From Rhizophagus irregularis (lineage: Eukaryota), in the NCBI RefSeq assembly GCF_026210795.1, contig NC_089429.1, positions 1,364,001-1,428,000 of the forward strand: DNA of 64,000 bases, read 5' to 3'. The notes beneath the pieces were generated by a model. It saw only the letters and a list, made by a program, of their open reading frames with translations, ran no database searches and was not told where the DNA came from. Within the stretch, counting starts at the first letter, position 1, and every line of letters begins with the position of its first letter. Shown in pieces: positions 6,644 to 49,231 of the stretch. Position numbers and translations under genes: made by a program.

Positions 6644-8353
6644 ATGGAAGAATTTAAGCTCAGCGATGATGTATTTGAGCAAATAAAAGATTTTAACCAT
6701 TGGGAATTAACAGATGAACAAAAATTGTTAATTGATAAGTTAATATTAAATGAAGAATTAAAAGAACGTTATAAATGTAATGGTTTGTGCAAAGAATGTA
6801 AACAGCCTAATACTGGTAATGGTTGGTGTAAGTCATGTAATGTTAAGCATTTCCAACAAAATTTCAACAATTGGACTAGTGGAAATAATGAAGTTGATAA
6901 GTTTATTCAAAAAACACAACTCAGAGCTAAACGTTATGAAGAAATTTTAGAGTGGATTGAATATGATAGATTTGAAAATGTTGAATATTTGGCTAAAGGA
7001 GGATTTGGAACTATTTATAAAGCAATTTGGAAAGATGGATATATAGAAGAATGGGATTCTGAAAATAATCAATGGGAGAGAAAAGAATATTGGATCCAAC
7101 ATAAAAATTTTCCTGTTGTTTTAAAATGTTTACATAATTCTCAGAATGTTACATCCGAATTTTTAAGAGAAGTAGGTTACTTATTTGTATATAATTTTCA
7201 AACTACTGTTCCAATATAAATGTTAAACTTACTATTATTTATTATTATTATTATGGATTCTTTTTTAGATTGAATCACATACCATGATTATTTCAGATGG
7301 TGTAACTCGATGTTTTGGCATTACTAAAGATCCAGAATCTAATAATTTCATGATGGTAATAGAATACGCAGAAGAAGGTAGTTTAAGACAATATTTAAAT
7401 AATACATTTAATTCAATAAAGTGGGTAGATAAGTTGAATATTTTACAAAGGATTGCAGCTGGCCTCTTATCCATTCATGAAAAAGAATTAATTCATCGTG
7501 ATTTTCATTGTGGTAATATGTTAAAAGATAATGACTATACTATTATTACTGATTTAGGATTATGCCAACCAGCAAATGTAAAACCTTCTCAAAATGAATA
7601 TGAAAAACAAGTATATGGAGTATTACCTTATGTTGCGCCTGAGGTTTTAAGAGGAAAAGAATATACTCAAGAAAGTGATATTTATGCATTTGGAATTATT
7701 ACATATGAAGTCTGTACAGGGCTTCCTCCTTATCATGATATTGCTCATGATAAAATCTTAGCTATTAGCATTTGTCAAGGGCTTAGGCCAAAATCTGATT
7801 ATAAAATTCCTCAACTAATTTTGAACATAATTAAACAATGTTGGGATGCTGATCCTTCAAAACGACCTAAAGCAAATGAATTATATGATTCATTAGATAA
7901 TTTATATGATAAATTACTTGATGATAGTGATGATAGTGAAATCAAAAAGCAGGTTGAAGAAGCAGAAAGAATTAATGAAAAGATTACTTCTACTTCATTA
8001 CCATATAATGGTACTACTCTTTCATATACTACAAATCCTCAAGCAGTTTACACAAGTAGACTTTTAAACTTTAAAAATCTACCAGAACCAAAAAATGCTA
8101 TTGATAACAAAGATGACAATAATTCAATTGGAGAATATTCAGGTAATTAATGTTCTAGTTTATATTAGAAAAAGTATTCTTGAAATACTTATAATTTACA
8201 ATTATTTTTTTGTTTTCTAGAATCCATAGAAGCAATCGATTTCACTAAACTCAATCTAGGTACTCATTTACATTAACTTGCTTTTTGCATGATAATTTTA
8301 CTAATATTGTTAACAATTTATTTTAATTCATTCTTGTAGATAAAGACAACTAA
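6644..8353 (+). CDS. TKL-type protein kinase with Cys-rich N-terminus; exons 6644-7171, 7269-8142, 8221-8259, 8340-8353
   Basis: GGFGTIY, VVLK, HRDFHCGN, DLG, YVAPE and SDIYAFG motifs; GT-AG introns keep the frame to TAA at 8351-8353. Confidence 0.9.
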
Positions 8354-10040
8354 GAAAGGAAATTTACAAATATTCAGAATATAAATTTCTTTATTCGTAT
8401 ATATTATTTTATTATTTATTTTCTTTATCATTTTTACAGTATGTGTATTTTATTGGATTATATTTGTTATTATTAAAATTTTATAAATAAATTTTTTATA
8501 ATTAAACCATGTTGAACATCGAGTAATACTAATCATAAAATATCACGTCCAAATTCAAGAATTCTAAAGAGGAATACACAAGGAATATTAAAAGAGTTAA
8601 ACTATATGATGTTAAATTTGAAAATGTGACTATAGAATCAAGAAAAATATAAATAATGTAATTTATTACTTCGTTATAATTTTATAGTATACAGTACATA
8701 TAGTGATTCATCCTATTTATTTTTATAATAAAATATAATTGTATTCAAATATTTGAACAATTAGAATTTTTTTAATGATCGATCCAAATGTAGTTATTTT
8801 TCAAACAATGAAAAATTGGCGTAACATAAATATTTATATCTAGATTACCTAACCCGGGTCAAGCAACTGACTTGACGATGAAGTCAGGACTCAAAGCCAT
8901 AGTGCGGGCAAAAATTGTACTGACCAGCATTACTGATCACGTATATTTTAATTTGATCAACCACGTGACTGAAAGGCACATGCCCGTCATTGTAGTATCT
9001 CTTAAATGATAGCTATTGTTCTAAATTCCGCGGAATTTTCAGGATTTCCGCAGAGGATTCCATGGAATTTCATTGTATTACAGTTTAGATCGGCACATGA
9101 GTAGTGGTAAATCGCAGCCAAATTTAGCTGCAAAACACTTTAAGGGATAACATTCACAAGTAAAATTTCATTTGCATATTTTATTAATTTTTATTATACA
9201 GTAAGTATTGATATTGAATAATTTGGACAATTCCATTATAAACGGATTCGTTACATTTCTAATATTACTTTCTATAGATTCTTTATAACATATTTTTACT
9301 TCTATTAAACGCGAAATAATGAATTTTCAAAAAAGATTTTTCTCCATTTCATTAACTTTCATTACCAACTCACTCTAATCAAACCTTCATATAATCTTTG
9401 TGCCTCGTTGAACCAAATAATTTTGTTAATTCTGAAAGACCGCAGTAAGCACGTGACTGTTTTGAATTATCATTCGGTACAAAAAAATACGAAAAATAGT
9501 GGTGAAGGCTTAAACAAATTTATTATTAATTACCTCGCTTTGCTCCGGACAATAAAAAAATTTGAATACCAATTAAAATACTTGTGGCGATATATTTTCA
9601 GTAATTTCGAATATATTTTTAAATTTTTATTTTTATAATTTATATTGATTACAATTTTTATACTACTACTTAGGCAAACTTCAACAATGACCATTATGCA
9701 AGTTATGGTTTAATTTACATCATAAAATGTAATATTGTCATTATTGTTATTGAAACTTTATTTGGTTTCAATTATTTAAATTCTCGCACTGATCTCACAT
9801 ACTGCATACTCGCATCAATCTTTACTATAATTAGATGTGGTCATATGTAATATCATATATATTGTATGCATGGTGCAAAGCATGCAAAGCAAAATGATAT
9901 GCTTACAACATATATGCATCACTCAGCATGACATGAAACATATCAACTAAGCATTATATAATCACTTTTTTTTTTATAAATTGTTAATTTTTTTTTTTCG
10001 TATCAAGTTCCTTAAAAGATACACAAGAAAAAAAAAAAAA

Positions 10041-13000
10041 ATGTCGTTGGCAAATTCATCGGACCGAAATGGTTGGATTACTGATATGTTGTACAAAGAA
10101 CATATTACATTTCACGAATTTCATACTTTTGATAACATAAAATATATCGGGGATGCTGCGGCCAGAGCTTATACAGTTAATTCAAGAATTTATAATAAAC
10201 CCATGCTTATGAAACCTATAATTTTTAATCAATCTTTTACCATTCAAGACTTTGTGAATGAGGTATATGTCACACAATTAATATTATATTATTGTATTTT
10301 TATACGTTTTAAAAAATAAATTTTTTTTTTTTAAAAAAAAAATTATTATTTTTATTATATTATTATTTTTATTTATATTATTTTTTTTTTTTTTAGGTAA
10401 TACAACACCGAAAAGTCGAGTTGCACGATAATATTATACGTTTCTATGGTGTAACTAAAGAAGGTATGCTCTTACTATAATTTATTTAATGTATCAAATA
10501 ATAATGTTTCAAAAAATTTTTTTTTATTTACGACGGATTTTTTAATGGACAAGAAAATATTTGAGAAAAAAAATAATACAACATCCAAATGTATTTATTA
10601 CCTAGATTTTATCTTAAATATTAACCGAAACAATAATAAGCCGATATTAAACACAACCTTGAATTACGTGTTAAAGGAATTACGTGTTAAAGGCGCAGCA
10701 AAATTTAAGAGAGTACTCGATAAAAAATTAATTTTGCAAATTTCAATTATTCAAATTTTATTACGCTCGTTAACGATTAGATCGAGGACAGTATCAATAT
10801 ATGCTACTTCTGGAAGATACTGATGAAGGAACACTTCGTGATTACTTGAAGAAATCGTTTTTACAACTTAAGTGGGACGTTAAATTAAAATTTGCAAAAC
10901 AGCTTGTGAGCGCGGTAAATTGTTTACACGAAAATGATATCGTTCATCAAAATTTAGTAAGTCGATATTTTTTTTTTTATATTATTGATTAATTTTCATA
11001 TTCATTGAACATTACTAACGTAATTATGATTCGAATCCAGAATCCTGAAGATATTCTTATTAAAGGTGGAAATATCAAATTGGGCGGTTTCGGTCTTACC
11101 AAAAAAATAAAAAAGTTAACGAATGCTGTTTCAAGAATTTATGGTGTTTATATTCAATATGCTGACCCAGAATATTTGAAAAATCATCAAGAATTTATTA
11201 GAAATAAAAAATCGGATGTATATAGTGTTGGTGTCTTACTTTGGCAAATTTCAAGTGGAAGAGTTCCATTTGAATTTGAATTACCTGATTTTAGTTTAGT
11301 TCAATTAATAATTGAAGGGAAAAGAGAAATTTCTATTAAAGGAACTCCAAGTAAATATATCGATATTTATACAGGTAAGCAAATAAACTATCGTTAACTA
11401 TTTTTTTTCTTTATTTTATTTTAACATTTTATATATATATTTAGCTTGTTGGGAGGGAAATCTGAAGGATAGACCAAGTATTAAACAAGTTTTAAGAAAC
11501 ATTGACGAGGTAGAAATAACTAAAGACGTAACAAAGGGATTAAATTATTTTTTTAAAAATGATATCTCATCCTCCAGGACAACAACCGGTAACGACAATC
11601 ATGTTGATCATGATTGTTATATTTTAAATAGGAAAAAATCAATTTCTTCAATATTATCAAGTTCTTCATCAACAATATTAGATTTATTAACCATGTATAA
11701 GACGAAATATAAGAATGATGATAATAAATCCTGTATTATTATTGGTTCGAGTAATTCTTCAGCCGTCGATTCTGGTTCAACATTAGTAGAAAATTCCAAC
11801 GAAAAAAATTCTTTAGATGAATTATTATCTAAACCTGGAACAACTTTAGAAATTAAATATACTTTAGAAAATATGAACAAAGATATTAATGAATTAATTT
11901 TACAAAAATTATTATTGGAATTTATTTATCAATTTTATATATCAAATAATAAGGTCATTAATTCAGAATGGTTAAATGAATTTATTAAAAATCATCGTGG
12001 TATTAACGAACATTTATCATCAAAATATTTATTAGAAATGATGTTAAATCATAAAAATCAAAATTATTTTACAAATTTACTTGGTTACTTTTATGAAAAT
12101 GGTATTGGATGTGATAAAATGGATTTTATGAAAGCTTTTGAATATTATTTAAAAGGTTCAGTGGATGATGATTATTATTTTGATATAAAACAAAAATCAT
12201 TTAATTCAAATTTTTATAATATTAATAAATATGATAAAAATTCTTTTATTAGTTTGAAAATTATTCTTATATCTATTGGACAATATTTTTTAGGATTATT
12301 TTATTATAAGGGAATAAATGATAGTATAGAACAAGATTTTGAAAAAGCATTCGAATGGATTTCGAAATCTTCAGAAAATGGAAATCTTGTAGCTCAATGT
12401 ATGCTTGGATACTTTTATGAACATGGAATTGGAACACCTGAAAATGAAACAAAAGCATTTGAATGTTATATAAAATCGGCTGAAGGTGGGAATGCATGTG
12501 GACAATGTAATATTGGATTATGTTATGATAACGGATCATTAGGAATTGTTCAAAATAAATATGAAGCGTTTAATTGGTACTTAAAAGCAGCTGAAGGTGG
12601 CGATTCTTCTGGTCAATATAATCTTGGTTTATGTTATGAAGAAGGAGTTGGTACGATTAAGGATGAAAGTAAGGCTTTTGAATGGTATTTAAAATCTGCT
12701 GAAAACGGAAATGTATCTGGTCAATGTAAAGTTGGAGTATGTTACGAAGAAGGAATTGGTGTTGAGAAAAATGAATATAAAGCGTTTAAATGGTATTTAA
12801 AATCTGCAGAAGGGTATGATATTTTGGGACAATATAATCTTGGATTATGTTATATGAAAGGAATAGGTATCAATAAAGACGAAGAGGAAGCATTTAATTT
12901 ATTTTTAGAATTTGCTAAATCAGGAAATAATCTTGTCCAATCTTGTTTAGGATATTGTTATGAGAATGGAATTGGAACATATAAAGATGAAAGTGAAGCA

Positions 13001-13447
13001 ACTAAATGGTATTTAAAATCTACGGAAGGTGGAGATATTTTAACCAATCATAATCTTAAATTATGTTTTAAAAATATGAAGGATAAAGATCAAGCGTTTA
13101 AATGGTATTTAAAGTTTGCAAACCATGGAAATTCACTTGCTCAATATTATTTAGGAGATTGTTTTGAAAATGGTTTAGGCACGATAAAAAATAATGAGCA
13201 AGCACTTGAATGGTATTTAAAATCTGCTGAAGGAGGTAACGAAGATGGTCAATATAAAGTTGGTTATTATTACCAAAATGGTATTGGTATAATTAAAGAT
13301 GAACAAGAAGCGTTCAAATGGTATTTAGAATCCGCAAAAAATGGAAATTCTAAAGCACAATCTGCTGTTGGAATTTGTTTTATGTATGGTATTGGTATAA
13401 AAAAGAATATTTTTGAAGCAATTATGTGGTTTCAAAAAGCAAAATAA
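10041..13447 (+). CDS. Kinase-like domain plus Sel1-like repeat protein; exons 10041-10262, 10397-10463, 10781-10956, 11041-11374, 11445-13447
   Basis: Spliced frame is open. YADPEY and SDVYSVG kinase motifs, then repeated AQxxLGxCYExGIG...AFxWYLKSAE Sel1 units. Confidence 0.88.
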
Positions 13448-15433: not shown

Positions 15434-16112
15434 GTGTTAAACTAAACTGTATGTCTGTATCGATAAAAACTTTTAAACAAGAAACACGACAAAAATCTAA
15501 AAACTAATAAAAAACTAAAACTTATAAATAATACAGCCCATCCTTCTAGAAAAATCTCGTAGTTGTGACAAAAACTCTTTTCCTAAGTGACAACCAAATA
15601 TATCTCTTGATCTCTCAGGAACTGCATGGTACATATACCATCTTCTTACTTCATAACAAAATTTGTATAGTGTACTATTGTACTGAGTACTGACGCTTGA
15701 TATTCTTGTTGAATTTTATACTATATCTGAAACCTTTTTTCGTTTTCCAGAATATTCAACTCTTTTTGTAAAACGTCTTTGGTCGATATTTCTCAACAAA
15801 ATATATAATAAAAAGAGTGAAAAAAAGACTCAAGTTGGTATAGTTTTAACTCTTTCATAGAACTTTTTGTTTTTCCATGACCGTAAGGTTTGTTGTACAG
15901 ACCCCAGGTTCCCATTGGATCCGACGTAGAATTAGCTCGGATTCCATGTAATGACGGCAGAGGTCCGGATGATTACAAATGATTACAAATCAAAAAATTC
16001 CAGATGTTGATCAATCGAATCCGGGGCGAAAATTAGTATAGCCGATCAACAATTTCGGACGCCTACTGAAAATTGGCTGCATTTTGCATAAATAGTATTA
16101 CACAAGCAACTA

Positions 16113-16228
16113 TATCTCTATAAAAAATTTTTTGGGGAAAACTCCGATAAATGATCATTTTTCTAGTTTTCATTCCAAAAAAACTCCGATATATGATCAA
16201 TTTTCTAAAAAATTTTTTATAGGGATAT
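16113..16228. mobile_element. Small MITE just upstream of the ATG exon at 16281
   Basis: Inverted ends atctctataaaaaattttt / aaaaattttttatagggat in TA-rich flanks. Confidence 0.55.
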
Positions 16229-16280
16229 ATATATACTTGAATAAAGGCGTTTGGAAGAATTCTAATAATATTATTCAGTA

Positions 16281-19200
16281 ATGGCTCAAAGTAACGATAA
16301 GGAAGATAAAGGTAGGTAAACTTATTCGGAAAATCTAATGATAATATTACAGCTTGTAAATCATAAACATATAACTAGAGTAACTTGGTAATTATTAGTG
16401 AGTTATAATCATTATACTGTCAGATTGACTCGAAAATTTTGGGTCGGGTCATCAAACGTTTTTATAATTAAATATAAAAAAAATTGATTTTTTTATTAAA
16501 AACGTCAGACTTGACGTTTTTGTAATTAAAAAACAAAAAAATGACTTTTTTAGTTAAAAAACGTCAGGCTTGACGTTTTTGTAATTAAAAAATCAAAAAA
16601 ATGACTTTTTTAGTTAAAAAACGTCAGGCTTGACGTTTTTGTAATTAAAAAATCAAAAAAATGACTTTTTTAGTTAAAAAACGTCAGGCTTGACGTTTTT
16701 GTAATTAAAAAATCAAAAAAATGACTTTTTTAGTTAAAAAACGTCAGGCTTGACGTTTTTGTAATTAAAAAATCAAAAAAATGACTTTTTTAGTTAAAAA
16801 ACGTCAGGCTTGACGTTTTTGTAATTAAAAAATCAAAAAAATGACTTTTTTAGTTAAAAAACGTCAGACTTTACATTTTTGTAATTAAAAAATAAAAAAA
16901 AAATGACTTTTTCAGTTAAAAAACGTCAGACTTGACGTTTTTGTAATTAAAAAATCAAAAAAATGACTTTTTTAGTTAAAAAACGTCAGACTTGACGTTT
17001 TTGTAATTAAAAAATCAAAAAAAATGACTTTTTTAGTTAAAAAACGTCAGACTTGACGTTTTTGTAATTAAAAAATCAAAAAAAATGATTTTTTTAGTTA
17101 AAAACGTCAGACATGGCATTTTTGTGATTAAAAATAAAAAAAAATGATTTTTTAATTAAAAACGTCAGATTTGACATTTTTATGATTCAAAAAATTATTT
17201 TTTATGTTAGATTTGACAATTTTGTAATTAAAAATCAAAAAAATTGATTTTTTTAGTTAAAAACGTCAGACTCGACATTTTTGTAATTAAAAAATCAAAA
17301 AAATGATTTTTTTATTAAAAACGTCAGACTTGACGTTTTTGTGATTAAAAATCAAAAAAAATATTGGTTTTTTTTAATTAAAAATGTCAGACTTGATGTT
17401 TTTGTGATTAAAAATCAAAAAAATATTGATTTTTTAATTAAAAACGTCAGACTTGGCAGTTGGCATTTTGTAATTAAAAATCAAAAAAATATTGTTTTTT
17501 TTAATTAAAAACGTCAGCCTTGACGTTTTTGTAATTAAAAAATCAAAAAAATGATTTTTTTGATTAAAAATGTCAGACTTGATGTTTTTGTAATTAAAAA
17601 ATCAAAAAAAAATGATTTTTTTGATTAAAAACGTTATACTTGACGTTATTGTAATTAAAAAATCAAAAAAAATGATTTTTTTGATTAAAAACATCAGACT
17701 TGACGTTTTTGTTATTAAAAAATCAAAAAAATGATTTTTTTAATTAAAAAACGTCAGACTTGACATTTTTGTGATTAAAAAATAAAAATTAAAAAAATAT
17801 TGGTTTTTGTTTAATTAAAAACGTCAGACTTGACATTTTTGTGATTAGAAATCAAAAAAATATTGGTTTTTTTTAATTAAAAACGTCAGTCTTGACATTT
17901 TTTGTTAAAAAAATAAAAAATGAAGAAAAAATAAAAAATGAAGAAAAAACGTTTTTGCGTTATTTTATTTATAATTTTATATGGAAAAATGCCAAAACGT
18001 TTTTTTCTTAATAGTAATGCAAAAAAAAAAGTTTTTGGCATTTTTTTTAATAATATTATATGAAAAAACGCTGAAACATTTTTTTTACAATTTTTTTATT
18101 TTTTTGCAATATTTTATGAAATTTTAATGATCAACAAAAAAATGAAATTATGCAAATATTGAATGATGCAACAATTTAACAGGGACTTTTAGTGGCACAG
18201 GAAGAGTTTTTGCGAAAAGTTGGCATTAGAAGTTTTTTTCATTGACATTGACATTGACATTGACATTGACATTGTCACTGACATTGACATTGTCATTGAC
18301 ATTTTTTTAAAGTTATATAAGATTAATCTGAGAGTTTTTTACCAAAAAGGAAATTTTTTTATAAAAAGGGAAATGATTTTCAATTTCGAGGCAATTCAGC
18401 AGGTGTTTTAATAACAAATTGAGAAATGATTTCCATAGAAAATCTCGTGACAAAATTTATAATAAATTTAAAATAAATGATCAACAAATGATCAACAAAA
18501 TCGTTACTAGTTTTATAAAAAACGCCCAATAATATCTTTTTATTGTTTTAAATTTTAGAATTTTAAATAACTGTATTTATAAAAATTATTTAACTATTTT
18601 AGCTCGTAAGTTATAGGTTATTTGTAGTTTGAATAATAGTTGAATACTTAATCCTATTATATTTTATGTAACCAAATAATTTATTTTATTATTAATGATA
18701 TTATAGTTGGTAAGATAGTTATTTATTTCTATTATATTTTATAAATAACTAATTTTTTTCATTAATATAATTGTTTAATAATTATTGATGTTATAGAAGG
18801 CAAGTATTAATTTTATTTTAATTTAAAATATTTACATATAATTTAAATTAATAATTTTATTTAAATAATTAGATTGTAAGTTACTGCATACATTTAATTT
18901 TCATATACAATTATAGTATTTTATCTAATTAATCAATTTATTATAATTACTTTACTTAAAAATTATTAATGCTACAGGGTGTAAGTTATATGTTATTTAT
19001 TAATTCTGTTATATTTATAATATTTACACAATTTAAACTAACTAAATTATTTATTTAAAAATTACCCAAATATTTTTTTAGTTGGTAAGTTATACATTAT
19101 TTATTAATTTTATTATATTTGTATAATATTTATATAAACTAACTAAATTCTTTATTTAAAAATTTATTCAAATATTTTTTTTTTTAGTTGGTAAGTTATA

Positions 19201-22200
19201 CATTATTTATTTAATTCTATTATATTATATAATATTTATTTGAACTACTAACTAAATTCTTTATTTAAAAAATTAATTATTTAATAATATAGAGAGTAAG
19301 TTTTTATTATATTTATATAATATTTACATATGATTTAAACTAATTAAATTCTTTATTTTCAAATATTTTATTTTAGTTGGTAAGTTATACATTATTTATT
19401 TAAATCTATCATATTATATAATATTTACATGCAATTTGAACTAAATTTTTTATTTACAAAATTAATTATTTAATAATACAGAGAGTAAGTTATTTATTTA
19501 ATTCTATTATATTTATATAATATTTACATATAATTTATACTAACTAAATTCTTTATTTAAAAATTATTAGATTGTAAGTAATTTATTATGTTTATATAAT
19601 ATTTACATATAATTTAAACTAATTAAATTTATTTTAAAAAATTATTCAAATATTTTAGATCGTAAGTAGTAATTTATTATATTTATGTAATATTTACATA
19701 TAATTTAAACTGATTAAATTCTTTATTTAAAAAATTATTCAAATATTTTAGATCGTAAGTATTTTATTATATTTATATAATATTTACATATAATTTAAAC
19801 TAACTAAATTCTTTATTTAAAAAATTATTTATTTAATAATATAGGGAGTAAGTTATTTATTTAATTCTATTATATTTATATAGTAATATTTACAAATAAT
19901 TTAAACTAAATAAATTTTTATTTAAAAAATTATTAAAATATTTTAGATTGTAAGTAATATTATATTTATGTAATACTTATATATAATTTAAACTAATTAT
20001 ATTCTTTATTTAAAAAATTATATAGGGAGTAAGTTATTTATTTAATTCTATTATATTTATGTAATATTTACATATAATTTAAACTAACTAAATACTTTAT
20101 TTAAAAATATTTAGATCGTAAGTAATTTATTATATTTGTATAATATTTACATATAATTTAAACTAACTAAATTCTTTATTTAAAAAATTATTCAAATATA
20201 TTAGATCGTAAGTAATTTATTATATTTTGTAATATTTACATATACTAATTTAAACTAACTAAATTCTTTATTTAAAAAATTATTCAAATATATTAGATCG
20301 TAAGTAATTTATCATATTTATATAATATTTACATACAATTTGAACTAACTAAATTCTTTATTTAAAAAAATTATTCAATTTTAGTTTGTAAGTTATACAT
20401 TATTTATTATATTTATATAATATTTACATATAATTTAAACTGATTAAATTCTTTATTTCAAATATTTTAGATCGTAAGTAGTTTACTATATTTATATAAT
20501 ATTTACATATAATATATAATTTAAACTAATTAAATTCTTTATTTGAAAAATTATATTTCTTTAGTTGGTAAGTTATACATTATTTATTTAATTCTATTAT
20601 ATTTACATTTAATTTAACTAACTTTTAAAAATCAATCAAATATTCTAGATTGTAAGTAATTTATTATATTTGTTTTAATAATAATATTTACATATAATTT
20701 AAACTAATTTTAAAAAATTATTTATTTAATAATATAGGGAGTAAGTTATTTATTTAATTGTATTATATTTGTATAATATTTACATATAATTTAAACTAAC
20801 TAAATTCTTTATTTAAAAATTATTCAAATATTATAGATTGTAAGTAATTTATCTTATTTATATAATATTTATGTATAATTTAAACTAACTAAATTCTTTG
20901 TTTAAAAAATCTATTCAAATATTTTTTTTAGTTGGTAAGCTATACATTATTTATTTAATTCTATTATATTTATATAATATTTACATATAATTTAAATTAA
21001 CTAAATTCTTTGTTAAAAAAATTATTCAAATTTTTTTTTTAGCTAGTAAGTTATACATTATTTATTTAATTCTATTATATTTGTATAATATTTACATATA
21101 ATTTAAACTAACTTCTTTGTTTAAAAAATTATTTACTTAATAATATAGGGAGTAAGTTATTTATTTAATTCTATTATATTTATATAATAGAATTTTTCTA
21201 ACTATCACTGGGGTGATGATTACCCCAGTGATTTGAAGTAAAAAACTATATAATATTTACATATAATTTAAACTAACTAAATTCTTTATTTAAAAATCAT
21301 TCAAATATTGTAGATTGTAAGTAATTTATTATATTTATATCAATAATAATATTTACATATAATTTAAACTAACTAAATTCTTTATTTAAAAATAATAATA
21401 TAGGGAGTAAGTTATTTATTTAATTCTATTATATTAATTGCAATTAATTTAAACTAAAATAAATTATTTATTTCAAATATTTTTTTTTTAGTTGGTAAGT
21501 TATATATTATTTATTTAATTCTATTATATTAATTGCAATTAATTTAAACTAAAATAAATTATTTATTTCAAATATTTTTTTTTTAGTTGGTAAGTTATAT
21601 ATTATTTATTTAATTCTATTATATTTATATAATATTTACATATAATTCAAAACTAACTAAATTCTTTATTTAAAAAATTATTCAAATATTTTAGATCGTA
21701 AGTAATTTATTATATTTATATAATATTTACATATAATTTAAACTAATAAATTCTTTATTTAAAAAATTCTTTATTTAATAATATAGGGGGTTAGTAATTC
21801 TATTATATTTATATAATATTTGTATATGATTTAAACTAATTAAATTCTTTATTTCAAATATTTTAGATCGTGAGTAATTTATTACATTTATATAATATTT
21901 ACATAATAATTTAAACTAACTAAATTCTTTATTTACTAAAATATTTTAGCTTGTAAGTATATATTAAATTTTTTAATTGCATTTAATTTATTATAATTAT
22001 ATAATTTTACTTATAATTTAATTAAATCTTCTTAAAAAATTTTGTTAAACTATCTTAGTTGGTAAGTTATCAGTTATTATATGTTATTTATATAAGAATT
22101 AAAATCAATTATTTATTGTATTAAAATTTTATAATTTTATTTAGAGTAAGTATAATTAATATTATTCAATATTAAATTTTTAATTATTTTAAATTTTAAT

Positions 22201-25200
22201 TTAATTTCATTTTTTTGTATTTAAAGATTTGGTACTAGTGGAAGTAAAATTGTGGATCAATTTATTTCTGAAAATAAATTAAAATGGATTCCTTATAATA
22301 AATTTAAAAACATTGAATATCTTAATAAAGGAGGATTTGGTACTATATATAAAGCTATATGTAAGATTGAAGATAAAGATTATGAAGTAATCCTTAAACA
22401 TTTTGACTATCTTAATAATTCAGATGAAAGTTTAAAAGAATTTTTAAATGAAGTATGAATAAATAATATTTTTTTTTAATTTAATTATAATTTATTTATA
22501 CTTATTTGCTAAATATTATTTTTTATAGTGGCAAATAATTGATTCAAATAAAATTATTAAGATTTATGGATTTACAAAAAACCAAATACTTTGAATATAT
22601 ATGGATTTACAAAAAATCCAGATATTTTGAATTATGTATTAATAATGGAATATACAAATAAGGGTAATTTAAGAGGATGCCTAACAGAAATAGCAAATAA
22701 TTGGGAAAAAAAATTATTTTATTTGTATATTATTATTGTTGGTCTCAATGATATTCATGAAAAAGGTCTTATTCATTATAACTTTCATGATGGTAATATT
22801 TTATGTAACAAATATAAAGAAAATATATATGGAATTTATATTAGTGATTATTTAGGATTATATCAACTTGCAAAATTGTTTTTAAAAGAAAATAATATTT
22901 ATTGTATTATACCATTTATGGCACCTGAAATTTTAAGTGGTCAACCTTATACTCAAACAAGTGATATATATAGTTTTTCTATGATTATGTGGGAATTTAC
23001 ATCTGGAATTCCACCATTTAATGATAAAGCACATAATCTTCAACTTGCTTTAAGTATTTGTAAAGGTAAACGTCCTAAAATTATTGAAAATACTCCACAA
23101 TGTTATGTGGATTTGATGAAAAAATGTTGGGATGAAGATCCATTAAAAAGACCATCTACATTACAGGTTTTAAATATTATTAAAAGTTGGATATTCCGTT
23201 CTGGAAATATCAATGAAGAATCAAAAAGCAATATTACGGAATTTATAAATGCACCAATTGAGCATAATAACCATATTGTAGAATCTCATCCACAAGCATG
23301 CTATACAAGTCATTTACTTGATTTTACTAGTAAAGAATTAAATAAAATTCTAGAGGAATTTCAAGAATTGGAATCACTTAAATTGAAACAAAAAGTTGGG
23401 GATGCTGAGCAGAAACTTCTTAAATTAGAAAAAATTGCAGAAACTTATTATCAAAGTTCTCTAAATGAGTTAAAAGAAAATCGATTAGCATATCAGAATA
23501 TGCAAATGGAATTAGCTAATTTCATTACAACAGAGGAATTCAAAATTTGAACAAGATAATCAAAGTTTAAACTATAATTTAACTGTACAAAATAAAGAAT
23601 TTGCAGAAAAAAAAAATACCTTACAAACCCAAATTATTTATTTGCAAAATGAAAAGCAAGCTTTAGCTAACAATTTAACTGAACAGTTAAAACAAATCAG
23701 TCAATTAAATCAAGAAAAAAACAATCTGCAAAATGAGTTAGCTCAATCAAAAGTTAACATTCAAGAATTACAGTCTCAGCAAGATCAATTTAAAAATAAA
23801 TTAATTCAATCTCAAATTGATCATAAACAAATAGAAGAAAAAAATCTTAAGCTAGAAAATGAGTTAGTTAAGTTACAACAAGGAAATTCTCAATTTGAGA
23901 AAGATAACCAAAATTTGAGACTTGACTTGGCTGTACAACTTAAAATATCTGCAGAAAAAGAAAATACTTTACAACCCCAAATTACTTACCTGCAAAATGA
24001 AAGACAAGCTTTGGCTGAGGATTTAACTGAACAATTGGATCAAAATAAACTTGCTAGCCATCAAGTTCAAAATCAAATTGACCAGTTAATGCAAGATAAA
24101 AATTGTTTGGAAGAAAAATTAACTCAAACAGAAGATAATATTCAAAAATTAGAATCTAAACTAAGTCAATCTCAGGCTAATTATGAAAAGTTGTGCAATA
24201 GGTTAGATGGCCTATCACAAGATTACAAGGTTACTATTAAATTGAAAGCCAAGTCAGAAAAAGAAAAAGTTGAGTTGGAAAAAGAAAAAGCTGAGTTGGA
24301 AAAAGAAAAAGCTGAGTTGGAAAAAGAAAAAGCTGAGTTGGAAAAAGAAAAAGCTAAGTTGGAAAATGAAAAGGCTAAGGTAGAAAAAGAAAAAGCTGAG
24401 TTGAAAAAAGAAATTGCACAATTGGAACAAAAATTATATATTGAAGAACAAATCAAAATGCAATTAACCCAAGCTTTTGAGATGAAAGAAGTTAAAATAA
24501 GTGAATTTGAACAAAAATTGATTAATCTTAATTATGAGCGTATTAAAAAGTTAAAAGACAAAGAAAAAGAATTGACCAAAATTAAAGAGAAGTTAGTAAG
24601 TAAATTGACTAGTGGAGAAGATACTAAGGAAATTCATAAAGAAAAAAAAGCTAAACAAAAAGTGATAGATGAACTTCAACAAGAATTATTAACAACTTCA
24701 GCTTCTTATTATGCTAATAGGAAAAAACAGATTCTCAATCAAGTTAATAATTTTCTAAAGGCCAAGGGTAATTTTCTAACTTTACGGGAAGAAGCTATTG
24801 AAAAACTGCAAGATTGTTTTAATCAATTAGAAAGTTCTATTAATGAAGTAAGAAATACTATTGGTTCTACCAGAGATATGAAAATCTCTACATTGACTGA
24901 TAAATATACTAATAAATTTCAAAGTATTCTCATAAAATATAATGATGAAGTATTACAGCTAAACAAAAATTATTATTCCTTAAAGTATGTTGTTCAAAAA
25001 AATAAAGAATTGGATGTTAGCCTCACAATTGAAAATATTCTTAAGTTGAATAATTTCAATCTTGATAAATACAAAATTTTTAAAATTGCTACTAATTCTA
25101 AGGAAGGAACTGTAACCCAATTAAGTTCTAATATGATGGCAGAAGATATAAATACATTAAGAAGAAATTTGGATGAATTGAAATTAGAATTAAAGCAAGA

Positions 25201-25234
25201 AGAAAAAGAATTAAAAAATTTAGCAGCAGAATAA
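16281..25234 (+). CDS. Micro-exon-rich kinase-like plus long coiled-coil gene (two frameshifts: pseudogene or sequencing error)
   Basis: Exon 1 16281-16311 (MAQSNDKEDK+G, phase 1), 38 micro-exons 18603-22145, exon 22227-22452 (FGTSGSKIVDQFI...GGFGTIYKA), exon 22529-25234 (kinase then coiled coil). Frameshifts near 22580 and 23521. Confidence 0.7.
16490..17905. repeat. 60-bp tandem repeat, about 23 copies, with palindromic core
   Basis: Identical 60-nt lines at 16621-16860; each unit has AAAAACGTCA-G(G/A)CT-TGACGTTTTT; copies degenerate toward the right. Confidence 0.95.
18140..18550. repeat. Dispersed repeat, second copy at 42548-43718
   Basis: Shared tgcaaatattgaatgat...gcacaggaagagtttttgcg...(cattga)n...aataatatctttttattgtttta. 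Confidence 0.85.
18603..22145 (+). other. Array of 37 three-nt micro-exons and one 1-nt exon
   Basis: Every ~90-110 bp: branch point (often aactaac), YAG, exactly 3 nt, then GTAAGT-type donor (one GCAAGT, one GTGAGT, one GTTAGT). Confidence 0.85.
24257..24403 (+). repeat. 21-bp coding tandem repeat (EKEKAEL heptad, about 7 copies)
   Basis: gaaaaagaaaaagctgagttg repeated within the coiled-coil ORF. Confidence 0.9.
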
Positions 25235-26389
25235 TTAATAGATTACTGTTCAGTTCTTGATCAATTGCAATTAATTCATTGAGATGAACATATATTCTAG
25301 GATTTATTGAACATTATAGTACTCATTTTTTTAACAAAAAGAAAGTTTGTAGTCTTAGGAATTTGGAGAATTTTTTTTTTTTATTAAATTATAACTATAT
25401 TTATATACTTTTGTTTTTTCATCAAGAGGCTTCAATAAAAGATCATTAAACATTTTTGATGTGATAAGAAATTTCTTTTATATGATATGAGTTATTTATT
25501 AACCATTTATATATTGTAAATGTTTTGAATCAAACAAGTCAAACGAATATATCTGATATATATAGTATATATAAATCATTTTATCTTTGATATTAATTCA
25601 CCAACATAAATTTGCTAATATGCTTTATTTAAAGATATTATCATATTGATGTACTTGTTAAAAAAATTTATACATGATGTGGCTTTATTAATATTTTATT
25701 TTAAGTACAATAGATTCTCTCGGATTTCTTGATAGATTAGTTTCTTCTTGTTGAATCTTGTCAATAACTATAATTGATTTTCATTTCATAAATTTGAATT
25801 AGCATAAATAATTTTAGACTTACTATTATAGGCTATTGACTAGGTATGTAATTTGTTCAAAAAATTTTATCATTGTTTTTTATTCTAATAATACTGATAA
25901 TATTTATAAGTTTATTACTTTTTTCAATTTTAATACTGTCATTATTTTTAATCATAGTATGTTAGTATATGATAAAAAATTAGCATTAAAATATAAATTA
26001 CATTCATTAAATAAAGAAATATTATAAATTTTGTCTTGAAATAAGGAAAGAATGCTTAGAATTACTTTGGAAAGGAAATAAAATAAATAGAAAATTAAAA
26101 TTCTTATTATCCTCTGTTATGCCTATTACAAAATAGTAAATAAAGAAAAGAAAGCACATGCATTACATAATTTAGCTGACTTTGAATTATATTAACATCT
26201 TGCAATCATAATTATCCTAATAAATAATCAAGAGATTTTTAATGAGGCTTAAATATAAAATAATTTGCTTTAAAAAAATCTATTATAAAGACAAAATACA
26301 CTAGCTTATATAATCATGATATTTGTAATAGTGCAACCGCAACTCTAATCTCATTTTTTTTTTATTATAATAACTGAATTATATAAAAA

Positions 26390-41655: not shown

Positions 41656-42672
41656 TAAAAAAAATTTGTAACTTAGTACTATCATGTAAAAATGTAAATA
41701 ACTCCAAAAATATTCACTGTGCTTTCATGTAGATTAATATCTTAACAGCTTCAAACTTGCTGAACTACTTTTAATTAAAGAGCAAGATTTACTTTGGCCA
41801 AAATGCTCAAACCATAATTTGAAATATGTGTAAACAAACTATAATATTTGTTTATATTTAAATTCTGAGTTATTTAATTTAAATATGTTTGTGTTTATAT
41901 TTAAGGAAAAAAAATAAAATTTTACTTCTATTTTATTAGGTTTTTGTAAATGAAAAGACAAAAAAATAATCAGCTGAAAAAATAAAAAAATTCTTTGTTA
42001 ATAACCGTAATACATGATCATATGTTGCAATATTAAAATCGGAAATCCTATATTTAAATTGGTAATACGTATTACATATATGACCGATAGGCCAAATTAT
42101 ATTTCCTGCTATTACAATTGTAAAATAATATTAAAATTATGAATAAATTAAAAGTTTTTCTAATTTGAAAAATGCAAATCTTTCTGAATTACTCAAATTT
42201 TCAAATCTGTTTATTATAGTATAATCAATAATTAATTTTCACTGCAAAATCTCCTAGGAATGGATAAATAAATACATATAAAATTTACTACCCAGTAAGG
42301 TTTTTTTGGATGGTTCTAACCTCTACTTATTATTTATTTTATTTATTTTATTTTTTTTATAGAGAGAAATTGTCATAATATATGTATTATTTTAAAATTA
42401 ACATTTTAAAAATTAAATTGAAAAACTATAATTTATTAATTAACAATAAAATGTTTTTTGTTAAAATTATTTAAAAATTTTTTAAATTATAGTGAAAATG
42501 CTACAACAGTAAATAATATTATAATAACGAAATTGATCAGCAAACAAATGAAAACATGCAAATATTGAATGATGTCTCAATTTAACAGGTATTTTCAATA
42601 GCACAGGAAGAGTTTTTGCGAAAAGTTGGCATTAGAAGTTTTTTTCATTGTCATTGTCATTGTCATTGACAT

Positions 42673-43436
42673 TATCACAGAATATTTTTTCTTATTTTTA
42701 TTTTTTATTTTTATTGTTTTCATTTTATTTATTTCTATTTTTATCTTTTAATTATTTTTAGTTATTTTTAGATAGATTACTTGTAGTTGATTTTGGTTGT
42801 TTATAGATTAGATAAAAAGCGGAAGCTTAGCGATGTAAAATGGCTGAATATAAGTAGCTGTATAGACAAATGTGCCCAGATCGCCACAATTGGCCGGAAG
42901 GCGATTATGGTAAAATGACAGTTCTGGACGAAAGGACAGAATCGTATTAATATTTTGACGTTATAAAAAGGGTTGGTGTTGGAAGGAATTTTAGTTTAGT
43001 TCAGTTTGATATCATAAAGTTTTATTGTTATAAGATAGATATCAGGATATTACAGAGCGCCAGTTGAGGCAGTAATATCGTATTCTTTTTATTAATGAAT
43101 AAACTTGTCGATTTGCTTCCGAATTATTGATACATATTTTATTACGTTGTTTATTATCATTTTATTATCATTTATTAACAATTATTAATTTTCGCTATAC
43201 ATCGTTGATTTACTATATACACTTATAACTAATTGTTATCATAAACATACTATCCGATTTACTCCTAATCCATTATATCATTTATTATTGCCTATAATCG
43301 TTCATTATCGACTATTCATATATACACATTTACTTTACCGATTGTTATATATCGCCATATTACCTTACCACTCACATACTGATCCTTATTTTTCTTTCTG
43401 TTACTACCTACCAAACGTTATAAATCGGTGGTAACA
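42673..43436 (+). mobile_element. Probable solo LTR
   Basis: Insertion relative to the empty site at ~18270; termini tatcac (TG>TA) ... gtaaca; 4-bp TSD acat; TATAAAA at ~42962 and AATAAA at ~43098. Confidence 0.7.
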
Positions 43437-44186
43437 ACATTATCACTGACATTGACATTGTCATTGTCATTTACATAAAGTTATATAAGATTAATTTGAG
43501 AGTTTTTTACCAAAAAGGAAATTTTTTTATAAAAAGAGAAATGATTTTCAATTTCGAGGCAATTCAGCAGGTGTTTTAATAACAAATTGAGAAATGATTT
43601 CCATAGAAAATCTCGTGACAAAATTTATAATATATTTAAAAATAAATGATCAACAAATGATCAACAAAATTGTTACTAGTTTTATAAAAAACGCCTAATA
43701 ATATCTTTTTATTGTTTTAACTTACAAAATTTATATAAATATTTGCTAATTTTTTGTATAAATACAATTTTAATTGCAAATTACATGTTTTAATAAAATA
43801 ATATTTTAAATATTTACAATATTTAACAAATTTTATAATTTGACTAATTTTTAAAAGTTGTTTATAGTAAAAATACTTCAATAATTATTTAATTTTAATA
43901 AAATTTAAAGTATAATCTAAGGTTGCTTGGCGAAACTTGGAAGTTTAGACAAGTGTTGAAATCAAAACTAGTTTAAACATTTTGTTAAAAAGTAAAAAAA
44001 TTGCGAAACTGCGAAACTGCGAAAAGTTTAGACATATTTTTATATAGTAATTTAATGAAGTTTCGCCATTTACTATAGTAAATCATATGAATTAGTATAT
44101 TATGTATATCTTTTCCTATAAAAGTTAGAATACATTTATCTGAATTTACCGAATTGCAGAAAAACATTTGATCTGATTTTCGTGTA

Positions 44187-47100
44187 CAGTCAACTCCCTC
44201 TATAGTCACTCCCGTTATAGTCACATTCTACTATATAGTCACACCAGTTGAATGTTCAAAACACTTTATTATTAAAATCTATCCTATATAGTCACAATCT
44301 ATCTATAGTCACTATCACACCTATCCTCAAAAATCTTATATTAAAAAGAACTGTTTATAATCACAGTTATATAAAGAATATATTAAATAACTTGGCATCT
44401 AATAATCGTACAAAGTTGTATCATAGCTTGTTAGAATCGTCTCACTGAGACGAATCGAATAGTGGTAGTTTTATCCTTTCCTTTGCTAGTGTTTACGGCC
44501 AGACCACCCATTGCCTCTTATGAGACTAATCTCGGATCTGTGTTCTATCATCTTCACTGGGCAACCATTATACCGAGTACTTAATTCCTCAGGTAACAGC
44601 ACCACTATAGAAGACATCCCCCATCGGGCCATTTTAGGCTGATCTGAAGCTAGGTACACGCCGCCTACTCATCCTATATCCATTGCATGATACTGATACT
44701 CAATTTATTTTACGACCTTTAGAGAGCATCTACTTTCATGGAGGACTTTTGACAGGTAACATCAACCATCTAATACTCTTCCATACCACCATTTTAAGTA
44801 CTAAGTCTCACTCAAAGGCCACTACAGCCCGCGATTACCTAGCACCGATAGTACAGTTGTTTACCCCAATTGGTATACTTTGTAGTGACCACTCGGACAG
44901 GAAGTAGCAGGCTTCTGTTCAGGATCATCCCTTATGGTGGGTATCAACCACCAGGGATCACCAACCAGGACCCAAGAAGTGGGGAATCGAACCCCATAAC
45001 CATGCTATCTGTTCTGTGCACAAACACCTTTGGCTTATTCCTAAGACCTAACAGAAGGTCAAACTACCACTAAGACATTGCACCCTCAGCTTTACCATCT
45101 AGGATGATCATCTAGCCATTACTGATCCCAAGTGGTATCGTGGAGTGACCACCTGAACAGGAAGTCCCCCCAAGGTATAGTAGTGACCTCAAGGACAGGA
45201 CTGCGCACATACCAATGGCCTCATAGGGAACGTTAGAAGGACACCATGACCCTTAATTGAAATGTGCGGCCTAACCGTACACACTAATTCACCATGATGC
45301 AGTCCAACTACACTAATCCCTGTACCTTCACGCTATTGGTTGTAGCGTCTGCAGTAAAATTCTTTTTATTTCCGTGGTCATGGGAATCGAACCTGCGACC
45401 TCACCATACTCAGGCTTAATGAGGGTCTCAGTGACTAACCACCGAGATAGGGTGACCAACCCTAGTTTTATCCTTTTCCTTTGCTAATGTTTACGGCCAG
45501 ACCACCCATTGCCTCTTATGGAGACTAATCTCGGGTCTGTGTCCTATCATAGTTTTATCCTTTTCCTTTGCTAATGTTTACGGCCAGACCACCCATTGCC
45601 TCTTATGAGACTAATCTCGGGTCTGTGTCCTATCATCTTCAATGGGCAACCATTATACCGAGTACTTAATTCCTCAGGTAACAGCACCACTATAGAAGAC
45701 ATCCCCCATCGGGCCATTATAGGCTGATCTGAAGCTAGGTACACGCCGCCTACTCATCCTATACCCATTGCATGATACTGATACTCAATTTATTTAACGA
45801 CCTTTAGAGAGCATCTACTTTCATGGAGGACTTTTGACAGGTAACATCAACCATCTAGTACCCTTCCATACCACCATTTTAGGTACTAAGTCTCACTCAA
45901 AGGCCACTACAGCCCGCGATTACCTAGCACCGATAGTACAGTTGTTTACCCAAGTGGTATACTTTGTAGTGACCACTCGGACAGGAAGTAGCAGGCTTCT
46001 GTCCAGGATCACCCCTATGGTGGGTATCAACCACCAGGGATCACCAACCAGGACCCAAGAAGTGGGGAATCGAACCCCATAACCATGCTACCTGTTCTGT
46101 GCACGAACACCTTGGTTGGTCTAAGACCTAATAGAAGGTCAAACTACCACTAAGACATTGCACCCTCAGCTTTACCATCTAGGACAACCATCTAGCCATT
46201 ACTGACCCCAAGTGAGGTATCGTGGAGCGGACCACCTGGGAACAGGAAGCCACCCCCTCAAGCATAGTGAGTAGCGACCGCGAAGGACAGGGACTACGCA
46301 TACCAATGGCCTCATAGGGAACGTTAGAAGGACACCATGACCCTTAGTTGAAATGTGCGGCCTAACCGTACACACTAATTCACCATGATGCAGTCCAACT
46401 ACACTAATCCCTGTACCTTCACGCTATTGGTTGTAGCGTCCGCAGTAAAATTCTTTTTATTTCCGTGGTCATGGGAATCGAACCTGCGACCTCACCATAC
46501 TCAGGCTTAATGAGGGTCTCAGTGACTAACCACCGAGATAGGGTGACCAACCCTAGTGTTTTATCCTTTTCCTTTGCTAATGTTTACGGCCAGACCACCC
46601 ATTGCCTCTTATGAGACTAATCTCGGGTCTGTGTCCTATCATCTTCAATGGGCAACCATTATACCGAGTACTTAATTCCGCAGGTAACAGCACCACTATA
46701 GAAGACATCCCCCATCGGGCCATTATAGACTGATCTGAAGCTAGGTACACGCCGCCTACTCATCCTTAATCCATTGCATGATACTGGTACTCAATTTATT
46801 TTACGACCTTTAGAGAGCACCTACTTTCATGGAGGACTTTCGACAGGTAACATCAACCATCTAGTACCCTTCCATACCACCATTTTAGGTACGAGGTCTC
46901 ACTCAAAGGCCACTACAGCCTGCGATTACCTAGCACTGATAGTACAGTTGTTTACCCCAAGTGGTATACTTATGTAGTGACCACTCGGACAGGAAGTAGC
47001 AGGCTTCTGTCCAGGATCACCCCTTATGGTGGGTATCAACCACCAGGGATCACCAACCAGGACCCTCAAGAAGTGGGGAATCGAACCCCATAACCATGCT

Positions 47101-49231
47101 ACCTGTTCTGTGCACGAACACCTTGGTTGGTCTAAGACCTAACAGAAGGTCAAACTACCACTAAGACATTGCACCCTCAGCTTTACCATCTAGGACAACC
47201 ATCTAGCCATTACTGACCCCAAGTGGTATCGTGGAGTGACCACCTGAACAGGAAGTCCCCCCCAGGTATAGTAGTGACCTCAAGGACAGGACTGCGCACA
47301 TACCAATGGCCTCGCCAGGGAACGTTAGAAGGACACCATGACCCTTGTTGAAATGTGCGGCCTAACCGTACACACTAATTCACCATGATGCAGTCCAACT
47401 ACACTAATCCCCGTACCTTCACGCTATTGGTTGTAGCGTCCGCAGTAAAATTCTTTTTTATTTCCGTGGTCATGGGAATCGAACCTGCGACCTCACCATA
47501 CTCAGGCTTAATGAGGGTCTCAGTGACTAACCACCGAGATAGGGTGACCAACCCTGTTTTATCCTTTTCCTTTGCTAATGTTTACGGCCAGACCACCCAT
47601 TGCCTCTTATGAGACTAATCTCGGGTCTGTGTCCTATCATCTTCAATGGGCAACCATTATACCGAGTACTTAATTCCTCAGATAACAGCACCACTATAGA
47701 AGACATCCCCCATCGGGCCATTATAGGCTGATCTGAAGCTAGGTACACGCCGCCTACTCATCCTATACCCATTGCATGATACTGATACTCAATTTATTTA
47801 ACGACCTTTAGAGAGCATCTACTTTCATGGAGGACTTTCGACAGGTAACATCAACCATCTAGTGCCCTTCCATACCACCATTTTAGGTACTAAGTCTCAC
47901 TCCAAAGGCCACTACAGCCCGCGATTACCTAGCACCGATAGTACAGTTGTTTACCCCAAGTGGTATACTTTGTAGCGACCACTCGGACAGGAAGTAGCAG
48001 GCTTCTGTCCAGAATCACCCCTTATGGTGGGTATCAACCACCAGGGATCACCAACCAGGATCCAAGAAGTGGGGAATCGAACCCCATAACCATGCTACCT
48101 GTTCTGTGCACGAACACCTTGGTTGGTCTAAGACCTAACAGAAGGTCAAACTACCACTAAGACATTGCACCCTCAGCTTTACCATCTAGGACGACCATCT
48201 AGCCATTACTGACCCCAAGTGGTATCGTGGAGTGACCACCTGAACAGGAAGTCCCCCCCAAGGTATAGTAGTGACCTCAAGGACAGGACTGCGCACATAC
48301 CAATGGCCTCATAGGGAACGTTAGAAGGACACCATGACCCTTAGTTGAAATGTGCGGCCTAACCGTACACACTAATTCACCATGATGCAGTCCAACTACA
48401 CTAATCCCTGTACCTTCACGCTATTGGTTGTAGCGTCCGCAGTAAAATTCTTTTTATTTCCGTGGTCATGGGAATCGAACCTGCGACCTCACCATACTCA
48501 GGCTTAATGAGGGTCTCAGTAACTAACCACCGAGATAGGGTGACCAACCCTTGTTTTATCCTTTTCCGATCACTGGCTGACGAGTTATTCAACAAAATGT
48601 TAAACATCGGCATTATAATATTTCTTGATTTACGTTTACTGCGCCATTTAACATTTTGCTAGATTTCTCAGTACCTAGTGATTGTAAAAAGACGATTTAT
48701 AGCTCGTTGGAATCGCCTCATCGAGACGAATCGAATGGTGGTAAGCTCATCTCTCTGTGATCAATATTGACGGAGTTATTACTTAAAAACCATTTAAATT
48801 TTTTAATTTCGGAAATTGATCTAGTGATTGGATTTCGATGTATTTTATACCATTAGATTCGTCGCATCAAGACGAATCAAATGGTAGTAAGATCGTCTCT
48901 TTAGGATCAATATTAGCAGAGTTATTACACAAAAACCATTAATATTTTTTTAATTTCGGAAATTAATCTAGTGATTGGATTTCGACGTATTTTATACCAT
49001 TAGAACCGTCTCATCAAGACGAATCGAATGGCAGTAAGATCATCTCTCTACGATTAATATTGGCGAAGTTACGATACAATAAAGTTTTAAGTATAATTCT
49101 GGCTAAAATTATGTTAATTTTTGGCCGGAATTATGATATACAAATATAAGAAATTTTTTATATAGTCACATCTCTTTATAATCACCAAATATGGACTGTC
49201 CCAAATGTGTGACTATAAAGAGAGTTGACTG
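44187..49231. mobile_element. Non-autonomous Tc1/mariner(pogo)-type element nested in the hAT
   Basis: 23-bp TIRs cagtcaactccctctatagtcac / gtgactataaagagagttgactg; TA TSD. Confidence 0.88.
44482..48550 (-). mobile_element. Tandem stack of four ~1-kb tRNA-headed SINE-like elements plus one 71-bp truncated copy
   Basis: GC-richer near-identical units separated by ttttatccttttcc; the minus-strand 5' head contains the GGTTCGATTCC B-box. Confidence 0.75.

Follow-up and report, generated by a model that had tools for sequence, protein, structure and literature searches.

An array of single-codon candidate exons precedes a predicted pseudokinase gene in Rhizophagus irregularis

A 64,000-nucleotide (nt) stretch of the genome of Rhizophagus irregularis (contig NC_089429.1 of assembly GCF_026210795.1, positions 1,364,001 to 1,428,000, forward strand; hereafter the window, with its own numbering) raises the question of whether single codons can serve as exons in long succession. 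Between a short ATG exon and the first kinase exon of a kinase-like gene lie dozens of three-nt units, each set between an acceptor AG and a donor, and after them one unit of a single nucleotide. The first-pass annotation, made from the letters alone, read these units as 37 codon-sized exons and a 1-nt exon that build the N-terminus of the kinase-like protein. We consider it very probable that the triplets are used as exons. We also lean, with distinctly less assurance, towards the reading that splicing of the array gives a predicted pseudokinase a hypervariable N-terminal segment, and that this segment varies through cassette shuffling in the DNA and likely also through exon skipping.

A direct check of positions places 37 AG-NNN-G(T/C) units at 18603-22061 and the 1-nt unit, an A, at 22145, all of them where they had been reported. 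On the plus strand of the 64 kb, 36 of the 42 matches to the strict AG-NNN-donor pattern fall within 18500-22230, and on the minus strand none of 6 does; the 37th unit, at 21787, is outside the strict pattern and has the donor GTTAG, and the unit at 18797 has a GC donor. The array region holds 37 matches, where 500 dinucleotide shuffles gave 0.048 on average and never more than 2, although the units are copies of a tandem repeat with a period of about 90 bp and their counts are therefore not independent. The AG, the donor G and the A and G at donor positions +4 and +5 are invariant in 37/37 units. The introns range from 73 to 162 nt and their lengths show no phase (remainders 0, 1 and 2 in 15, 9 and 12 cases); a CTRAY branch motif occurs no more than 75 nt upstream of the acceptor in 28 of 39 cases. 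The spacing from AG to donor is thus constant although intron lengths drift independently of frame and intron 28 has gained a hairpin insertion, and the combination of fixed splice signals with changing intron bodies and exon letters, noted in the first-pass annotation, is confirmed.

The bases between these fixed sites are the most variable of the unit, with entropies of 1.77, 0.97 and 1.99 bits at the three triplet positions. Mean pairwise identity between units is 0.37 for triplets as against 0.80 for introns, and G+C content is 35% in the exon letters as against 8.5% in the intron cores. Pairs of units with an identical triplet are also alike in their upstream and downstream intron ends (permutation p=0.0002 each), and a central intron core is common to all units. 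Because the triplets are linked to both flanks around a common core, the array can be described as a set of few exon-centred cassettes which, we infer, were reordered through recombination in that core; shuffling of cassettes at the DNA level appears well supported by these comparisons. The earlier suggestion that the array grew by tandem duplication of intron-plus-codon units is supported by both the repeat of about 90 bp and the cassettes.

Exon 1 (16281-16311) is left in phase 1, whereas the kinase exon needs phase 2; the 1-nt unit is thus indispensable to the frame, which leaves the number of triplets free. No stop occurs when 16281-16311 is joined with the array, the 1-nt unit and 22227-22452, and leaving out the 1-nt unit produces one; the phase-1 reading and its in-frame link to the kinase exon, both proposed before, are borne out. 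Codon choice relative to the open reading frames (ORFs) of the window favours phase 1 (+12.8 bits over 32 codons, the wobble base being T or G) and speaks against phase 0 (-10.1 bits over 37 codons); phase 2 of the window array fits in codon choice, but has 6 stops. The claim of a stop-free product holds for the whole join, but for the window array alone stop-freeness is not significant (P=0.42 with shuffled order). Nor do we count as significant that triplets with a stop-forming beginning are avoided, the units being copies. Of the 38 micro-units 37 are 3 nt long. These triplets, which begin and end in phase 1, are symmetric, and the frame survives whichever of them are included; the one piece that cannot be left out is the 1-nt exon. 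A triplet supplies the end of one codon and the beginning of the following one, and the encoded residues thus vary with the neighbours to which it is joined; 4 of 666 possible skip-joins in the window would create a stop. The residues encoded by exon 1 after Met-Ala are all polar or charged. An extra triplet proposed in the first intron keeps the frame, but its donor is weak and it stays optional (Table 1).

Similar arrays were found with a search pattern of three consecutive units in metagenome contigs, prokaryote genomes and viral contigs. At least 109 stretches matched in metagenome contigs, of which 106 loci were kept for analysis; there were 16 matches in prokaryote genomes, three of them true arrays, all on contigs of a single bin that are short and AT-rich, and 0 in viral contigs. 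A filter for true arrays passed 18 of the 122 loci (106 metagenome and 16 prokaryote-genome loci), and one of those passed, L008, was rejected because it sits inside a long ORF. A reading of the TAA-type metagenome arrays as coding for Asn, Tyr and Asp was also rejected, and one such candidate, L026, is a (GTAA)n microsatellite. Among the matches listed, blastn shows homology to the window for 6 of the 106 metagenome loci, so that arrays of this kind do occur at paralogous loci, whose absence the first-pass annotation had named as evidence against spliced triplets. Two of the six contigs run into kinase exons and one has its array after a matching phase-1 first exon. L062, 73% identical to the window over 1.7 kb, has four triplets, then a 1-nt unit whose two flanking introns are homologues of the last two in the window, and a kinase exon; the base of the 1-nt unit depends on the paralog, being A in the window and T in L062. 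In L029 the array enters a kinase of another subfamily in phase 1, without a 1-nt unit (a Cys match at this junction was dropped, being one residue off the family motif). L071 has a 22-nt ATG exon that ends in phase 1 and resembles exon 1, then exons of 60 and 15 nt and then eight triplets. L028, read on the minus strand, has 29 intact units and three decayed ones, with donors lost or a triplet deleted, which shows that single cassettes decay.

The gene downstream belongs to a family of kinases. Pfam matches in the downstream ORFs are to kinase domains only (PF07714, E 6.9e-27), and in a relative, P0001, the kinase and the coiled-coil region form one open frame of about 900 residues. The catalytic loop of the window kinase reads HYNFH and has no catalytic Asp, which is also absent in 13 of 16 close relatives chosen by motif, so the subfamily is predicted to consist of pseudokinases. 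A paralog at 6644-8340 of the window has a Cys-rich N-terminus, an intact HRDFH loop and no array. The array takes the position of its Cys-rich segment, as had been noticed, both lying just before the common TSG motif, and the predicted array product is rich in Trp and Asp in place of the Cys-rich domain of other family members. The kinase exon has 68 protein matches, the named ones from Rhizophagus, with identities of up to 81% across the first exon of the kinase. An array-like annotated N-terminus occurs in 0 of these 68 and was likewise absent in 39 selected further relatives and in an N-terminal-motif screen of HMMER matches. Many of the 68 start at a Met within the kinase exon or at the exon border, as is expected if gene callers miss such exons. 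Three of 254 retrieved proteins (P0081, P0091 and P0111; genome annotations from R. irregularis and R. clarus, taken at the protein level) begin like exon 1 and reach the kinase-exon Phe-Gly via linkers of 2, 2 and 5 residues; their predicted starts support exon 1 and its phase, and their linkers would be compatible with short isoforms. In P0081, P0111, P0045 and P0051 an N-terminal acidic repeat of Glu, Phe, Gly and Ser of variable length was observed, which is another way for this N-terminal position to vary. In the coiled-coil region of the window gene a 21-bp coding repeat is present in 7.5 copies (24257-24413), and the corresponding run of P0001 is shorter and less regular.

Under the preferred reading, each intron of about 90 nt, having its own donor, branch point and acceptor, would be removed one by one, by intron definition as judged from fungal splicing. 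Removal of the intron on one side would leave a triplet as the terminal part of a longer exon, and the triplets, symmetric in phase 1, would be joined in genomic order. Unequal crossing-over in the common intron core would reorder the few cassette types. Skipping at the RNA level is likely by analogy, given the symmetry of the triplets and the precedent of Tuber discussed below, and the N-terminal segment may by the same token serve variable binding or sensing of non-self. A wider generalization, that arbuscular mycorrhizal fungi have kinases and pseudokinases with an N-terminal sensor built codon by codon from shuffled intron-codon cassettes, is put forward tentatively and we hold it to be rather doubtful. 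Skipping of subsets would then give a combinatorial repertoire from one gene, a receptor library built by splicing in an asexual multinucleate symbiont, and the device would have arisen independently in several eukaryotic lineages (contigs with units of about 33 nt and G+C-rich contigs with units of about 95 nt), unseen by current annotation.

Several results weigh against the preferred reading. Two RNA runs that carry one species label (X23 and X24) were compared with the end of the array; their reads are nearly all paralogous, and no RNA read or contig joins any triplet. The gene occurs in 20 listed data sets, none of them recorded as RNA, which is evidence neither for nor against splicing. 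Reads at least 99% alike to the window gene number 1 of 1850 and 3 of 2134, from which it follows that nearly all reads come from paralogs. These reads diverge from the window at 22452, i.e. at the GT donor, and among the best matches of this paralogous set, covering the array end only, none leaves at the kinase acceptor 22227. The window allele is frameshifted twice, which the first-pass annotation overlooked: near 22575-22581 there is one base too few, inside a 35/36-bp duplication, and near 23521 there are four bases too many. Contigs of run X1 match the window exactly at both places and those of run X15 differ by +1 and -4, so the breaks are not artefacts and there is also an unbroken allele, or a very close paralog. 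The window allele is a decaying copy that cannot make the full protein, and the undecayed splice sites of the array suggest that the damage is recent. In L062 the frame meets a stop shortly after the homologous acceptor, within the kinase exon, unless splicing uses an AG further downstream. In L028 three units have decayed donors and 39 of 406 skip-joins would make stops, so that free skipping is not stop-safe everywhere. The sensing role is based on analogy only, and the value of the whole is reduced by the Tuber precedent, by the array being seen in DNA only and by the broken allele.

The most serious alternative, which we nevertheless regard as unlikely, is that the triplets are real exons always all included in order, variation existing only between alleles and paralogs via cassette shuffling, as in the hypervariable repeats of fungal NLRs. 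The frame speaks for it, as it does for splicing of the triplets under the preferred reading: in the window and the six homologous contigs, 0 of 95 phase-1 codons are stops when 3.5 are expected with shuffled order (P=0.008), a signal that comes mostly from L028 (P=0.033), in pooled counts which are not independent because the triplets are copies of few cassettes, and in a test that excludes L047 (no blastn link to the window, phase 2 open, one phase-1 stop). This absence of stops in the native order across seven arrays supports joining in order, not skipping. The strong donors of 37/37 window units, the stops that skipping would make in L028 and the linkage of triplets with their flanks in cassettes point in the same direction. 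However, exact 3-nt symmetry would be useless without skipping, annotated relatives have short and unequal linkers (at the protein level only), and the mini-exons of Tuber are described, in the passages available to us, as alternatively spliced. In the same pool, and in favour of the preferred reading, Trp makes up 11/95 and Asp 14/95 of the phase-1 residues as against 1.9% and 5.5% in the window kinase ORFs.

A recursive type of splicing is improbable. The units would then be stepping stones in the removal of one 5.9-kb intron, the triplets would mostly be discarded and the mRNA would consist of exon 1, the 1-nt exon and the kinase exon. These three do join in frame, the unit at 18797 has a tandem AG directly before its GC donor and the kinase exon of L029 starts with GT. 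The ratchet points of recursive splicing are zero-length AG|GT sites, though, and the spacing here is 3 nt in 37/37 units, with one zero-spacing AG|GC alternative. Discarded bases are not expected to be exactly three, enriched in G+C and stop-free in one frame, and most of the sequence that such steps would help to remove is the array.

It is more improbable still that the array is an unspliced, functionless AT-rich satellite composed of copies of one intron-like unit. A tandem repeat of about 90 bp in a broken gene copy would suit this idea, as does the fact that (GTAA)n microsatellites match the same search pattern and account for many of the metagenome matches; but indels are found throughout apart from the stretch between AG and GT, the splice positions do not vary although they enclose the most variable bases, paralogs as diverged as L062 have kept the layout, and a neighbouring 60-bp satellite is without any such pattern. 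A phase-0 reading, with one residue per triplet and a membrane-like Leu/Ile/Gly peptide apart from the kinase, is stop-free, gives Ile, Leu, Gly or Phe in 34 of 37 positions and has a similar counterpart in L048, but it can be dismissed as very improbable, for it is out of frame with both exon 1 and the kinase, has a codon choice unlike the host, owes its hydrophobic look to the T at the phase-1 wobble position, and is at odds with L028 and L029, which are not hydrophobic, and with L071 and L029, which fix phase 1.

Table 1. Predicted parts of the kinase-like gene and its array, in window coordinates
Feature	Position	Strand	Remarks
Predicted first coding exon	16281..16311	+	ATG; 31 nt; ends in phase 1; donor GTAGGT
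Long first intron	16312..18602	+	contains 60-bp satellite 16456-17920; no splice-site pattern in the satellite
Possible extra triplet exon	16353..16355	+	frame kept; weak donor GTAAAT after 41-nt intron; optional
37 three-nt exon candidates	18603..22061	+	12 distinct triplets; introns 73-162 nt with branch-point motifs
Insertion of about 63 nt with G+C-rich hairpin	21189..21251 (limits approximate)	.	within array intron 28; flanking splice sites intact
1-nt exon candidate	22145..22145	+	turns phase 1 into the phase 2 needed by the kinase exon
Kinase exon	22227..22452	+	TSG motif, Gly-rich loop, conserved Lys
Ordinary intron	22453..22528	+	76 nt
Last exon	22529..25234	+	PF07714 kinase-like domain, then long coiled-coil-like region; two frameshifts

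In the first intron, parts of the stretch after the satellite (about 18130-18570) recur at 42534-42673 and 43437-43741 with 89-94% identity, from which we take it to be a dispersed repeat inserted there. The window as a whole is AT-rich and its gene content includes kinases, a Sel1-repeat gene and other intron-bearing genes; at 10040-13447 kinase-like exons are followed by 11 Sel1 repeats. A G+C-rich island (42-48%) at 44600-47500, with similar short ORFs recurring about 1.1 kb apart, is probably a repeat element. Rfam gave 0 matches at gathering score within 15500-26000.

Besides the homologues, two array classes from other organisms were observed, one with introns of about 30 nt and one G+C-rich with a spacing of about 90-95 nt. 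The first comprises L114 (16-1214, plus strand), L118 (596-1841, plus strand) and L122 (39-1064, minus-strand coordinates), with 31-38 triplets read in phase 0 and GT..AG introns of about 30 nt; their contigs are short, have 17-20% G+C, are binned as 'Mycoplasma sp.' and are likely eukaryotic contamination of the bin. The products of L118 and L122 start with Cys-x-Cys, have a variable middle and end with Cys-Pro-His-Lys-Gly, resembling a zinc-finger loop; L118 has one TGA triplet and its array is preceded by a coiled-coil-like ORF. To the second class (about 56% G+C, up to 28 units) belong L012, L038, L042, L052, L054, L073 and L105, the array of L054 lying downstream of a kinase-like match. 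The AT-rich L047 (44-1394, minus-strand coordinates), with 16 triplets, diverged introns and an open phase 2, appears to be a separate array family.

Splicing of the triplets would mean that the largest gene family of R. irregularis, the model mycorrhizal fungus, is in part mis-annotated, and this exactly at its most variable end. It would also open to test two old questions, namely what the kinases of Rhizophagus, thousands in number, sense and where the diversity of an asexual fungus comes from. The locus would also be a natural test of the limits of the spliceosome, with 38 consecutive exons of 1-3 nt, and arrays of codon-sized exons would extend from one NLR family of a truffle to a distant fungal lineage and another class of proteins.

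The kinase repertoire of R. irregularis has been put at 2,533 genes (PMC10234402), and the window gene shares with this family the PF07714/PF00069 domain and the TSG motif; unlike it, the close subfamily mostly lacks the catalytic Asp, and annotated members are without an array-encoded N-terminus. The main-text parts on exons, kinases and splicing of that long-read annotation do not mention such arrays, and in the mostly open-access literature none was found in Glomeromycota or at a kinase N-terminus. Parallels from outside the fungi are given here as far as the consulted parts of their sources describe them. The micro-exon genes (MEGs) of Schistosoma encode small secreted proteins and contain runs of symmetric micro-exons, varied by skipping, which reach up to 75% of the coding sequence (PMC4015677). 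Symmetry is shared, 37 of 38 micro-units in the window being 3 nt; in contrast to MEGs, the candidate micro-exons of the window total 112 nt against about 2.9 kb of ordinary exons, its units are all single codons and its protein has a hydrophilic N-terminus. In plants, APC11 and VPS55 have 1-nt exons with a GTRAGT donor that annotation misses, which leads to truncated N-termini (PMC8831610). The window has a candidate of this kind with the same donor type, but those of plants are single and conserved, whereas the one in the window stands at the end of a tandem array and has a base that depends on the paralog. According to parts of PMC13449251, Podospora NLRs with repeats of high internal conservation and brown-algal receptors with one exon per repeat gain diversity by recombining near-identical repeats. 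Recombination between near-identical units would be common to them and the window, where, unlike there, it is the introns that carry the conserved repeat and the coding part that varies is a single codon.

MEGs and plant 1-nt exons are more distant parallels than the NACHT-ankyrin (nank) NLR genes of Tuber melanosporum. These are described, in the relevant passages of PMC4986451, PMC9815663 and PMC13449251, as having tens to dozens of codon-sized, alternatively spliced mini-exons, which the three papers credit to Iotti et al. 2012. The 'new gene architecture' of the first-pass annotation is therefore not new, dozens of 3-bp exons having already been published for Tuber NLRs. Both systems are fungal, with dozens of frame-neutral 3-bp units in tandem (37 here, at the DNA level), and both belong to expanded gene families, that of Tuber being putatively involved in non-self-recognition. 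They differ in that the host gene of the window is kinase-like with a coiled-coil region and comes from Glomeromycota, that of Tuber being an NLR; in that the array of the window lies 5' of the kinase exon and would be N-terminal, whereas that of Tuber diversifies the C-terminal recognition domain; and in that the window array is read in phase 1 and closed by a 1-nt phase adapter. Alternative splicing of the mini-exons is described in Tuber, and the window array is known at the DNA level. From this comparison we can conclude that the window array works like the nank system without being a member of it, and that it belongs to a class of arrays known but barely studied, to which it adds a host in Glomeromycota and a place at the N-terminus of a kinase.

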